Virus record (IMG/VR): IMGVR_UViG_2657245027_000012
DNA length: 5,978 bases
From: a virus
Lineage: Duplodnaviria > Heunggongvirae > Uroviricota > Caudoviricetes
Reading direction: 5' to 3' (one strand)
Position numbers: made by a program. How positions within the stretch are numbered: the stretch's first letter is position 1; each line of letters opens with the position of its first letter. Of the stretch, positions 3,001-5,978 are shown piece by piece.

Positions 3001-5978
3001 GAGCTTCAGATGAAAATTAATAATTTAATCGTTGCATTGTCTGTCGCGCCTGAAGTTACCGCTATAGCAGAGAAAATAAGACTATTAGATAAGGAATTAC
3101 GAAGGGCTTCGGTATCATTGAAAACTTTGAAGAGTAAAGGTGCAAATTCATTCAGTGATTTTTATGCTATTGACTTAACCAGTAAAAATGGACGAGAGTT
3201 ATGCCGTACACTTGCCTATAAAACATTCGAAAAAATCATAATTAATACGGATAATAAAACCTGTGATATCTATTTTATGAATGGCATTGTTTTTAAACAC
3301 TATCCTTTAATGAAAGTAATATCCGCCCAGCAGGCGATAAGTGCTCTCAAATATATGGTTGATGGTGAGATTTATTTCTAAATAATGATCTCGGATTTTA
3401 AGTTATGCTATGGTGATAAAGTGCAAGACAGAATTAATTATCTTTGACGAAAATTAATGGGTAATTACTTTGTTTGCTCCCACAAGCGAGTTTTGTACGG
3501 CTGTATTGGGGTAGTAAATGAGCTATACAATCTTAATCATTTGTTAGGTGAGAACTCTTGGTCGCAGATTCAAATACTGAAAATACGTGACAAATTATTA
3601 TGAGCAAAATGGTGTATGTCACGTATTTTGAATGGTAGGTTAAAAAATAACACCGACTTTCGTAGGTATTACTAATAATAAAGCAGAGTTTTTAGATAGT
3701 ATCAATGTGCTTTGTGTATATTGTGGCAAATAATTGAGTTGGGGGTACAATTGTGATTGCTTTTGCATGAACATTGCGCCTTTATGCATAATGAGATAAA
3801 GGAATATCAAATAAAATAACGATAGGTCATAACAAAGAGGTTTTTATGAAAACACTTATCGTTTCAACTGTATTGGCATTCATAACATTTTCTGCGCAGG
3901 CTGCAGCATTTCAGGTCACTAGTAATGAAATAAAAACAGGAGAGCAACTTACAACGTCTCATGTCTTTTCTGGATTTGGGTGTGAAGGTGGTAATACATC
4001 GCCCTCATTAACCTGGTCTGGTGTTCCTGAAGGTACCAAAAGCTTTGCCGTAACTGTATATGATCCAGATGCACCTACAGGCAGTGGTTGGTGGCATTGG
4101 ACTGTTGTTAATATTCCAGCAACAGTAACATATTTGCCCGTTGATGCAGGGAGACGTGATGGAACAAAACTGCCGACTGGTGCTGTTCAAGGCCGAAATG
4201 ATTTTGGCTATGCTGGGTTTGGTGGCGCATGTCCTCCTAAAGGAGATAAACCACATCATTACCAGTTTAAAGTATGGGCTCTAAAAACTGAAAAGATTCC
4301 TGTAGATTCTAACTCCAGCGGAGCGTTAGTTGGTTATATGCTTAATGCTAATAAAATCGCAACCGCTGAGATAACACCAGTTTATGAGATAAAGTAGGGT
4401 GAGAGTATGCTGGCAAGAGGTAAGACTAACTTAAAGATCGAAGAAATACGGATGCATAAACATCATGAGATTCATAGGGTTAAGCCTATTATGCCAGCTT
4501 TGTGTCGTATCCGTCAGGGAAAGAAAGTTATCAATTGGGAGACGCATACTTTAACTGTTGATAATAATCAAATAATATTATTTCCTTGTGGTTATGAATT
4601 TTATATTGAGAATTATCCTGAAGCAGGGCTTTATCTTGCAGAAATGCTTTACTTACCCATTGATTTAATTGAGAGTTTCCAAAAACTTTATACGGTAACT
4701 GATCAAATACGTAACAAAACAAGTTTCTTTTTACCTCAGAATCCTGAGTTAATATATTGTTGGGAGCAACTAAAAACATCTGTTTCCCGAGGCTTCTCAA
4801 CTAAAATTCAGGAGCACTTAGCAATGGGCGTTCTACTTTCGTTAGGAGTGAATCATGTTAATCATTTACTTTTATCATATAGTAAACAATCATTGATAAG
4901 TCGTTGTTATAACCTGCTGCTATCCGAACCCGGCACAAAATGGACAGCAAACAAGGTTGCTCGATATCTCTACATTTCTGTTTCTACATTACATCGCCGT
5001 CTAGCAAGCGAGGGGGTAAGTTTCCAAAGTATACTGGACGATGTGAGGTTAAATAATGCGTTGTCTGCTATACAAACGACGGTAAAACCTATAAGCGAGA
5101 TTGCCAGAGAAAATGGTTATAAGTGTCCTTCTCGTTTTACTGAAAGATTTCATAATCGTTTTAATATAACACCAAGAGAGATAAGAAAAGCTTCCAGAGA
5201 GTAAAAGTGTTTTAAGAAGGAGCAATTCTATCGATTTTGATTTTGGGAAATCAACACGGCATAATTATGTCACCGGAGCCTGAACAACTCCGGTGACTTC
5301 TGCGCTAAACGGGGACGTTTATGCGCACATACAATCCAAACTCTCTTCTCCCTTCACAGATGCAGAAATGCACCTGCAATTCTTTGCATCTAGCGTTTGA
5401 CCTCTGCGGAGGTGAAGCGTGAACCTCTCACAAGACGGCATCAAATTACATCGCGGCAACTTCACCGCTATCGGTCGGCAGATCCAGCCTTATCTGGAGG
5501 AGGGCAAATGCTTTCGCATGGTGCTTAAACCGTGGCGTGAGAAACGCAGTCTTTCCCAGAATGCACTCAGCCACATGTGGTACAGCGAAATCAGTGAATA
5601 CCTCATCAGCAGGGGTAAAACGTTCGCCACTCCAGCTTGGGTAAAAGATGCTCTCAAACACACATATCTCGGTTATGAAACCAAAGACCTGGTTGATGTC
5701 GTAACCGGTGATATCACCACTATCCAGTCGTTACGCCATACCTCCGACCTTGATACCGGAGAGATGTATGTCTTCCTGTGTAAGGTTGAGGCCTGGGCGA
5801 TGAATATTGGCTGCCACCTGACTATTCCGCAGAGCTGCGAGTTCCAGCTGCTGCGTGATAAGCAGGAGGCGTAGTGATCCTACCCACGTAATATGGACAC
5901 AGGCCTAAGCGAGGTTCTGGTTTTCAAATTGTTCCGGACTGAGGCCGCCACACCAACTGTGCCGCCGCCACCGATTGT

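Follow-up and report, generated by a model that had tools for sequence, protein, structure and literature searches.

The window (the whole stretch of DNA analysed here, 5,978 nucleotides of the IMG/VR virus record IMGVR_UViG_2657245027_000012) probably carries, in a lambdoid prophage of the DLP12 type, the already known operon ybcLM, whose two genes would work as a self-contained cassette that regulates itself, a reading to which we give roughly three chances in four. The identities of the two genes, their 9-nt spacing, the binding of YbcM upstream of ybcL, the stress phenotypes and the conservation of the cassette together with its repeats are established here or in the literature. The genes, the structure of YbcL, the operon, the YbcM binding sites and the UPEC phenotype have all been published already; what is new, on the basis of sequence comparison, is that the cassette and the repeats of its regulator are kept across many enterobacteria outside phage. 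The added value is modest and comparative, and the finding as the first-pass annotation described it, a secreted PEBP-family protein and an AraC-type regulator forming a tight two-gene unit on phage cargo, matters little.

Prophage setting of the gene pair

The whole region shares 99.8% DNA identity with ybcL-ybcM (b0545-b0546) in the cryptic prophage DLP12 of K-12 MG1655, and the flanking order emrE-ylcJ-ybcK-ybcL-ybcM-ybcN is the same in both, which bears out the prophage location proposed for the pair. The two differ in that ren is intact in the window but split by IS3 in K-12, in that the window emrE carries a +1 frameshift and an IS3 end follows the window ybcN, and in the left arm of the window (1-588), which is absent from K-12. 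With the emrE frameshift and the IS3 end, the window prophage is defective and the neighbours of the pair are damaged. The pair lies in the following block:

1200-5250, + strand: AT-rich block with emrE (frameshifted), ylcJ, ybcK, ybcL and ybcM, an insert in a lambdoid backbone, flanked by ren and the ninB-like ybcN

The GC content of this block is 0.31-0.45 as against 0.50-0.54 in its flanks, with 0.39 for the ybcL-ybcM pair (about 0.51 in its surroundings) and about 0.33 for the ybcK-ybcL spacer. Its gene order is that of DLP12 and of phage PhiR34_1, and similarity to the nin region of phage 82 picks up again at about 5188. Three complete lambdoid phage genomes (PhiR34_1, PhiR68_2 and PhiR70_1) carry ybcL-ybcM at 99.7-99.9% identity. 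The position between ren and ybcN, the distinct composition and the presence in complete phage genomes are those of phage cargo (a moron).

YbcL is a periplasmic PEBP-family protein

The first gene and the elements discussed below are:

3846-4397, + strand: ybcL, open reading frame of 183 aa, periplasmic PEBP-family protein
3835-3840, + strand: Shine-Dalgarno sequence AAGAGG of ybcL, read in the sequence and kept across orthologs
3846-3908, + strand: predicted ybcL signal peptide, codons 1 to about 19-21, from the sequence pattern
4062-4076, + strand: DPDAP motif, YbcL residues 73-77
4140-4142, + strand: ybcL codon 99 (Val)
4251-4262, + strand: PHHY motif, YbcL residues 136-139

The PEBP assignment was confirmed by matches to Pfam PBP/PEBP PF01161 (E = 3e-42, profile positions 6-135 of 135), to TIGR00481 for the YbhB-YbcL family (189 bits, cutoff 58) and to the NCBIfam YbcL equivalog NF007330 (400 bits, cutoff 277). 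The PEBP fold is a solved one, as PDB 1FUX chain A has the same sequence over residues 22-183, and the whole protein is 100% identical to K-12 YbcL. Of the two motifs named in the first-pass annotation, DPDAP is present as such, but the second reads G133-D-K-P-H137-H138-Y139 and is therefore PHHY rather than a literal GxHHY. YbcL orthologs share 70-97% identity and all have DPDAPTGSGWWHW and Cys46/Cys129; D73, P74, D75, H84, H137 and Y139 are likewise invariant across 11 orthologs.

The N-terminus, MKTLIVSTVLAFITFSAQA followed by AAF, is predicted to be a cleavable Sec-type signal peptide, in which a basic n-region (K2) precedes a core of hydrophobic residues, 3-15, with Kyte-Doolittle values reaching 2.5, and an A-x-A pattern (A-Q-A at 17-19). 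The pattern is kept in 11 orthologs, and the crystallised 1FUX construct begins at residue 20-22. The description of YbcL as secreted needs correcting: the protein is periplasmic and leaves the cell by lysis, not secretion (PMC4810123). YbhB, the cytoplasmic PEBP of E. coli, and mammalian RKIP/PEBP1 have the PEBP fold and anion-pocket motifs in common with YbcL, which differs from both in its signal peptide, its two invariant cysteines and its periplasmic location, and which scores 202 bits against the YbhB equivalog model, under the cutoff of 226. To our knowledge, bacterial PEBPs have no known kinase target.

The residue that decides the effect of YbcL on neutrophils is, we take it, the one changed by V78T in mature numbering, that is, precursor residue 99. 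At residue 99 the window has V where UPEC-type YbcL has T, and the protein encoded is the K-12 one. YbcL of UPEC suppresses neutrophil migration, and a review ascribes this to a UPEC variant set apart by a single residue, the UPEC-type variant alone having the effect (PMC4810123). The first-pass mention of such an effect was right for UPEC, but it does not carry over to this window, which encodes the K-12 protein with V99.

YbcM is an AraC/XylS-family regulator

The second gene encodes a two-domain protein:

4407-5204, + strand: ybcM, open reading frame of 265 aa, AraC/XylS-family regulator
4434-4652, + strand: N-terminal beta-sandwich domain of YbcM, residues 10-82, from the AlphaFold model
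4959-5189, + strand: HTH_18 profile match, YbcM residues 185-261

Both HTH_18 (E = 1e-16, 61.5 bits, cutoff 33.6) and HTH_AraC (E = 1e-6, 29.1 bits, cutoff 26.6) match YbcM above their cutoffs, which upholds the AraC assignment; the ExsA_N sequence profile reaches 20.5 bits, under its cutoff of 27. In the AlphaFold model (pLDDT 81), eight beta-strands at residues 10-82 are followed by helices, seven of them at 163-264. The N-terminal part matches the regulatory domains of AraC, ExsA, RhaR and BgaR by fold (E = 1e-5 to 1e-4), and the search for an N-terminal domain that had been recommended for YbcM was answered, in the model and by these matches, with a cupin-like regulatory/dimerisation domain. 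The window protein is one residue (I28L) apart from K-12 YbcM, and the position of the ybcM start codon is kept in orthologs.

The top full-length fold matches of the model are ToxT, Rns and CsvR (E = 4e-13 to 1e-11), and the DNA-binding domain matches GadX, Rns and ToxT by sequence. ToxT of V. cholerae and Rns/CsvR of ETEC resemble YbcM in size (265-277 aa), in fold and in the sequence of the DNA-binding domain, but TM-scores are just 0.43-0.49 because the orientation of the domains differs, and the N-terminal domains have no detectable sequence similarity. A YbcM-ortholog profile run against PDB sequences reached the DNA-binding domain only, with no match to the N-terminal domain. ToxT and Rns are AraC-family virulence activators that autoregulate and counter H-NS; they govern pili, whereas the YbcM regulon concerns stress and motility genes. 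Judged from the model, YbcM appears to resemble the fatty-acid-sensing ToxT/Rns class, whose mark is a fatty-acid pocket with conserved basic or His residues between the N- and C-domains, in overall fold alone, and we do not file it as a member.

Prophage-borne regulators of the AraC/XylS family such as AppY (DLP12), PatE and PsrB (O157:H7) reprogram host genes (PMC10057817). In the annotations of K-12 and PhiR34_1, appY lies apart from ybcLM and not beside a PEBP gene. Unlike AppY, YbcM comes from an operon in which its gene follows that of a periplasmic PEBP, and its orthologs are mostly chromosomal rather than phage-borne.

The pair is conserved outside phage

Each of the 11 enterobacterial lineages that we examined has ybcL and ybcM side by side, and the genes around them are unrelated. 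Among complete E. coli genomes, 3209 of 5426 contain the pair at a coverage of at least 80%, and about 3,050 E. coli genomes form a class with 90-95% identity. In each of the three genomes of this class that were checked, the pair sits in an islet between fliE and yedK that is free of phage, and the class as a whole (about 3,050 genomes) probably carries it there. The islet allele, emrE-ybcL-ybcM, occurs in Nissle 1917, APEC17 and the cattle strain 13E0780 and encodes UPEC-type YbcL. Its DNA is about 90% identical to the window, with the same three genes, the same 9-nt spacer and an upstream region conserved from about -155. Its YbcL differs from the window protein by T3K, T8S, V60A, V88A, V99T and E149D, and its distal YbcM box has mismatches. 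No phage genes surround the islet, except for a 3' fragment of Q in Nissle, where there is also an nmpC-like porin gene. In other genera the pair occupies ordinary chromosomal sites and, in the genera examined outside E. coli, no phage remnants (Ren, YbcK, YbcN, NinE, RusA, Q) were found beside it. The phage-free islet and these chromosomal sites contradict the view of the pair as phage-specific cargo; a prophage-encoded YbcM is probably the minority situation in E. coli.

A porin was considered as a third member of the cassette and rejected, as one is present after ybcM in Nissle and in a single compost MAG, whereas Salmonella and the other genera lack it at that place. Two loci labelled 'Shigella flexneri' (L007 and L008) had seemed to encode distant YbcM homologs with 39-46% identity. 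Their open reading frames, including fli genes, are full of frameshifts, so we consider them error-prone assemblies of the fliE-locus allele and left them out.

Regulation of the ybcLM operon

The regulatory elements ahead of ybcL and between the two genes are:

3745-3778, strand not assigned: YbcM ChIP-exo footprint mapped from Gao 2021 (listed site 570015-570048, S/N 357, nearest gene ybcL)
3723-3751, + strand: P1, sigma-70 promoter-like GTGGCA-17-TACAAT, from a consensus scan, Escherichia-specific
3764-3791, + strand: direct repeat TGCATGA-N14-TGCATAA (general form TGCAYGA-N14-TGCAYRA), boxes at 3764-3770 and 3785-3791, 21 bp apart, putative YbcM operator
3812-3817, + strand: -10 hexamer TAAAAT of P2, a putative promoter conserved in position
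4398-4406, + strand: 9-nt intergenic spacer GGTGAGAGT with the ybcM ribosome-binding site, reading TAG-GGTGAGAGT-ATG

The ChIP-exo site was placed on the window with an offset of 566270, assuming NC_000913.2 numbering, in which the ybcL start is presumably 570116. In NC_000913.3 the listed positions would fall inside ybcK, and the ybcK-ybcL spacing equals that of the window, both of which support the offset. The published experiment, carried out under paraquat stress only, yielded 12 YbcM sites, of which the one upstream of ybcL is among the two strongest (Gao 2021). The pairing and target of YbcM had been called undefined in the first-pass annotation, but these 12 sites, which include its own ybcLM promoter, and the published phenotypes of ΔybcM say otherwise. 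The deletion raises sensitivity to H2O2 8-fold; a ybcM::Tn5 insertion is hyperlethal with nalidixate and was complemented; quinolone sensitivity has also been published for loss of ybcM, and a YbcM transcriptome study has been presented at a meeting.

The pattern TGCAYGA-N14-TGCAYRA matches the window only once (0.03 expected by chance), and its proximal box begins 7 nt past the end of the ChIP-exo interval. The exact pattern recurs at the same relative position in the loci of E. albertii, Salmonella and Budviciaceae; in most other lineages both boxes are present near -82 and -61 relative to the ATG but depart from the pattern by one or two mismatches, and Y. ruckeri has the proximal box only. 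Similar sequences, TTTATGCATCAT and AAATGCACAAT, adjoin the ucpA and ubiT ChIP-exo sites. For the conserved element that lies upstream of the distal box, a CRP-like half-site, TGTGA (3753-3757), was weighed and dropped, since a second half to match it is absent.

Downstream of the repeat, the P2 hexamer has the same T1, A2 and T6 in every one of the 11 upstream regions aligned. The -35 that P2 implies, TAATGA (3789-3794), is poor and shares 3 nt with the proximal box, and for this reason YbcM is most likely an activator. Activators of the AraC family typically act from direct repeats spaced 21 bp apart and adjoining a weak -35 (class-II promoters), and the repeat next to a -10 with invariant T, A and T suggests class-II positive autoregulation from P2. 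The hexamers of P1 have been reported as a constitutive RpoD promoter of ybcLM by genomic SELEX in vitro with RpoD holoenzyme, and H-NS has been flagged in the ybcK-ybcL spacer (PMC3946193).

Both open reading frames and the gap of 9 nt between them are exactly as first claimed. A scan of the junction found no terminator-like site and folding found no stable RNA structure (z = +1.2), which agrees with the claim of a tight same-strand unit and with the literature, where ybcLM is treated as a single operon (PMC8464067; PMC3946193). Same strand, short gap, no intervening terminator and an adjacency kept across distant genomes are together the marks of a bicistronic operon. The 9-nt gap occurs in eight of the 11 enterobacterial lineages, five of which read TAA-GGAG-N5-start codon, and the window spacer is a weaker ribosome-binding site than the GGAG of other genera. 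Translation of the two genes may be coupled.

Taken together, we propose that YbcM, an AraC/XylS regulator of two domains whose overall fold is ToxT/Rns-like, would bind the two direct TGCAYGA repeats directly upstream of ybcL, the proximal one covering the weak -35 of the conserved P2. It would most likely activate transcription, closing a loop of positive autoregulation, and plausibly do so by countering H-NS silencing of the AT-rich DNA. The bicistronic mRNA would yield YbcL, sent to the periplasm by its Sec-type signal peptide, and YbcM, translated from the ribosome-binding site within the spacer. YbcM also binds a dozen or so promoters of the host, ubiT, ucpA and lrhA among them, and helps the cell to survive oxidative and quinolone stress. 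Points against the model are that ChIP-exo covered paraquat stress alone, that its interval stops short of the proximal box, that the window spacer is a comparatively weak ribosome-binding site and that the hairpin 3' of ybcM (below) has no U-run.

It seems improbable to us that the genes are instead expressed independently, with the ybcM promoter inside ybcL and the gap a matter of mere compact packing. Genomic SELEX does list an 'internal promoter' between ybcL and ybcM (PMC3946193), but our consensus scan found no promoter-like match on the + strand from 3751 to 4465, the junction has neither terminator nor structure, the YbcM binding site lies upstream of ybcL and not within it, and adjacency and spacing persist though YbcM drops to 47% identity; a weak internal promoter supplying basal regulator would fit the operon model too. 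The sign of autoregulation could also be negative, with P1 driving the operon constitutively and YbcM at 3764-3791 blocking RNA polymerase. Evidence for such repression, which we think unlikely while granting it some weight, comes from the detection of P1 by both consensus scan and SELEX (PMC3946193), from boxes at about +6 to +33 relative to the predicted P1 start, which is repressor geometry, and from a supplementary table of Gao 2021 that appears to give 'Repressor' in the AraC/YbcM row, although this reading of the table is uncertain. Against it, the P1 hexamers are unconserved outside Escherichia in the aligned upstream regions, whereas the boxes and the TAAAAT -10 keep their positions in 11 lineages. 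The layout of the repeats at a weak -35 also argues for an activator, and YbcM could do both, blocking P1 while activating P2.

That the pair is decaying prophage junk with no host function in this strain would be in keeping with the defective prophage, the frameshifted emrE, the IS3 end after ybcN and a K-12-type YbcL that, according to the review, is unable to suppress neutrophil migration (PMC4810123). This reading is largely refuted by purifying selection and the K-12 phenotypes, and we hold it to be highly improbable: both open reading frames are intact, dN/dS against two diverged alleles is 0.06-0.09 for ybcL and 0.12-0.14 for ybcM, well over three thousand complete E. coli genomes carry the pair, and deletion in K-12 has published phenotypes.

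A conserved partnership for a bacterial PEBP

According to a review of the PEBP family, its genes seldom belong to a conserved neighbourhood (PMC8793217). The PEBP gene described here, in the Enterobacterales lineages examined, always has the AraC regulator beside it, with the putative operator and promoter also conserved, and this pairing opens a straightforward way to find out by experiment what a bacterial PEBP natively does. Going further, we speculate, although we consider this doubtful, that ybcL-ybcM might be an ancient sensor-effector cassette found throughout the order Enterobacterales and simply acquired by a lambdoid phage. Its regulator would be ToxT/Rns-like and sense a ligand, possibly a lipid or fatty acid, and the periplasmic PEBP would serve as the dedicated output of that regulator. 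If it were true, the pairing and its operator would give a first genetic hold on what bacterial PEBPs natively do, and YbcL might, for example, act in the periplasm on molecules of the class sensed by YbcM, binding or processing them.

Finally, one further element lies 3' of the operon:

5269-5297, + strand: 10-bp GC-rich hairpin 3' of ybcM (fold z = -4.2), without a U-run

It falls inside a stretch that is still common to the window and the Nissle islet, and it is possibly a weak terminator or a tR2-like element.

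Conservation of the ybcL-ybcM pair

The window is an E. coli lambdoid prophage segment of DLP12 type, and positions 3600-5400 are 99.8% identical to K-12 MG1655. Its plus-strand genes run as follows.

Replication gene P fragment, plus strand, first gene in window order
897-1199, plus strand, ren
1267-1600, plus strand, emrE, following ren
ylcJ, plus strand, between emrE and ybcK
1855-3381, plus strand, ybcK
3846-4397, plus strand, ybcL (PEBP family)
4407-5204, plus strand, ybcM (AraC family)
5419-5874, plus strand, ybcN, ninB-like

The tight two-gene arrangement described in the first-pass annotation is real, with 9 nt between the ybcL stop and the ybcM ATG. 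The other details of that observation that could be checked also held, apart from the exact spelling of one YbcL motif. ybcLM is an already-known operon, rightly recognised there, and the question left open about it is largely answered in the literature. As far as we found, what the literature does not describe is the phage-independent, order-wide conservation of this PEBP-AraC cassette together with its operator.

YbcM orthologs with 47-82% identity were found in E. albertii, Salmonella, Cedecea, Lelliottia, a Budviciaceae strain, Plesiomonas, Brenneria, Yersinia ruckeri and a compost MAG, and each is immediately preceded, in the same orientation, by the gene for a PEBP of 182-185 aa with a signal peptide. 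The neighbors of the pair are wholly different, being tauABCD and PTS genes, hrpA and sodC, ychF-pth-prs, sugar genes, or transposases. Among the 11 lineages, 8 keep a gap of precisely 9 nt between the two genes, and five of these eight loci read TAA-GGAG-N5-start codon. Both genes are under purifying selection (dN/dS 0.06-0.14). The GC content of the pair tracks that of the host in Cedecea, Brenneria and Yersinia while in E. coli it is 0.39 versus 0.51, and on this composition the cassette looks native to the former and imported into E. coli. The observation is incremental, but a conserved PEBP-AraC cassette offers a practical way to find out what bacterial PEBPs do.

The encoded proteins

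The PEBP assignment of YbcL was borne out by a PEBP domain (E=3e-42) and by a score of 400 bits on the YbcL equivalog model, whose cutoff is 277, and from residue 22 on every residue is the same as in the crystallised protein 1FUX. As had been proposed, the N-terminus shows the n-h-c organisation of a putative Sec-type signal peptide, with A-Q-A at its end. DPDAP lies at residues 73-77, while the second motif, given earlier as GxHHY, actually reads P-H-H-Y (residues 136-139). The pocket residues are invariant in the ortholog alignment and, along with two invariant cysteines, indicate that YbcL is a functional periplasmic PEBP. These cysteines, C46 and C129, are the only two in the protein; they are invariant across 11 of 11 orthologs and would fit a periplasmic disulfide bond. 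The window encodes the K-12 protein, which differs from the Nissle/UPEC type at six positions including V99T, reportedly equivalent to V78T in the mature numbering of Lau 2012. YbcL has been described as periplasmic and freed by lysis, with the UPEC protein suppressing transepithelial neutrophil migration and laboratory or commensal variants inactive owing to a single residue (PMC4810123). The neutrophil dampening mentioned in the first-pass annotation holds for the UPEC variant but probably does not apply to the allele in the window.

The AraC-family assignment of YbcM was supported by a double HTH above Pfam cutoffs. Its predicted model (pLDDT 81) combines an N-terminal beta-sandwich and helices with a C-terminal double HTH, and the best full-length fold matches of this model are ToxT, Rns and CsvR, although by sequence the likeness to them is confined to the DNA-binding domain. 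The statement that the pairing and target of YbcM are undefined is outdated, as Gao et al. 2021 refer to the "operon ybcLM" and report 12 ChIP-exo sites for tagged YbcM, the strongest two at ubiT (S/N 470) and upstream of ybcLM (S/N 357), followed by ucpA (81), yhiS (42) and lrhA (24) (PMC8464067). Deletion of ybcM lowered H2O2 survival 8-fold (PMC8464067), and a ybcM::Tn5 insertion proved hyperlethal in combination with nalidixic acid, a defect that could be complemented (Han et al. 2010, PMC2824699). According to a 2022 meeting abstract, YbcM turns motility genes down and biofilm genes up (PMC9966839).

Regulation of the cassette

Under the offset that NC_000913.2 coordinates imply, the YbcM site that ChIP-exo placed upstream of ybcL falls at 3745-3778 of the window, close to the following elements.

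3764-3791, direct repeat TGCATGA-N14-TGCATAA (two boxes), overlapping the ChIP-exo site and running slightly past its 3' end
3812-3817, hexamer TAAAAT, 27 nt downstream of the proximal box start

The repeat is the sole match in the window (0.03 expected by chance). Most orthologous loci carry both boxes upstream, exactly or with 1-2 mismatches, near positions -82 and -61 relative to the ATG, with the proximal box alone kept in Y. ruckeri, and box-like sequences adjoin the ucpA and ubiT ChIP-exo sites. T1, A2 and T6 of the hexamer, the positions by which a -10 element is recognised, are invariant in 11 of 11 upstream sequences. With a 17-nt spacer the -35 is TAATGA, a poor match that shares 3 nt with the proximal box. 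Most orthologous promoters also share a conserved AATTnTGAT (3749-3758 in the window), which precedes the distal box by some 6-15 nt and could serve as an extended half-site, as a third site or as the target of a different factor.

Our best reading is that ybcLM is a self-activating cassette, a sign of regulation that we infer. YbcM bound to the two repeats would recruit RNA polymerase to the weak promoter in the class-II geometry known from AraC, XylS and RhaS. A single mRNA would be made, YbcL would be exported to the periplasm and YbcM would be translated from a ribosome-binding site in the spacer. We looked for a terminator or stable structure at the ybcL-ybcM junction and found neither. 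Negative autoregulation by YbcM, or switching between two promoters, is a live rival because transcription from the Escherichia-specific constitutive promoter at 3723-3751 would begin just ahead of the boxes. Shimada et al. 2014 list for ybcLM a constitutive RpoD promoter (GTGGCA-17-TACAAT) and also an internal promoter, and flag H-NS in the spacer holding the ybcLM promoter (PMC3946193).

Distribution in E. coli and phages

The pair is present in 3209 of 5426 complete E. coli genomes, with 676 pair-bearing genomes at 99% identity or above (DLP12 type) and about 3050 at 90-95%. The gene order in the 90-95% class is fliE-emrE-ybcL-ybcM-(IS or porin)-yedK in all three strains checked (Nissle 1917, a cattle isolate and APEC17), and around this copy no phage genes were found in the three strains except a Q fragment in Nissle.

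11524-15381 of the Nissle 1917 locus (L002), fliE-yedK islet, also found in L029 and L030

Since the Nissle islet retains the final 30 codons of antiterminator Q and an nmpC-like porin, it looks like what erosion has left of a DLP12-like prophage beside flagellar genes. The islet adjoins fli genes, and YbcM reportedly represses motility genes (PMC9966839) and binds at lrhA (PMC8464067); this closeness may be coincidence. Three complete GenBank lambdoid phages, PhiR34_1, PhiR68_2 and PhiR70_1, carry ren-emrE-ylcJ-ybcK-ybcL-ybcM-ybcN at 99.7-99.9% identity.

Flanking regions

ybcK codes for a large serine recombinase of 508 aa that contains Resolvase, Recombinase and Zn-ribbon domains and matches phrog_95 "integrase". 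The gene sits in the AT-rich block, and the phage already possesses a tyrosine integrase. The fliE-yedK islet lacks ybcK, which might at one time have made the emrE-ybcLM block mobile. The T-run of emrE at about 1498-1503 has one T more than K-12 (GGGGATTTTTTCTG in the window; GGGGA-TTTTTCGG in K-12), which shifts the frame past about codon 77 at the cost of the last transmembrane helix. Either emrE is a pseudogene in this strain or the extra T is a sequencing error in the homopolymer.

5269-5297, strong hairpin without a U-run, 3' of ybcM

Two adjoining stable hairpins (5269-5327, fold z=-4.2) lie between ybcM and ybcN at the position occupied by tR2 in lambda and are preceded by a promoter-like site (5237-5265); the phage 82 nin-region record begins at about 5188 of the window. 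The final 104 nt (5875-5978) are an inverted match to the end of the K-12 IS3 (L001 9388-9285, 99% identity), the copy that splits ren there. In the window an IS3 directly follows the ybcN stop, and ren is intact.

35-340, minus strand, lambda-Exo-like N-terminal ORF, adjoined by another minus-strand ORF

The left end (1-588) is absent from K-12 DLP12 and the best-matching genomes annotate bet and an exonuclease there, so the deletion history differs from that of the K-12 prophage.
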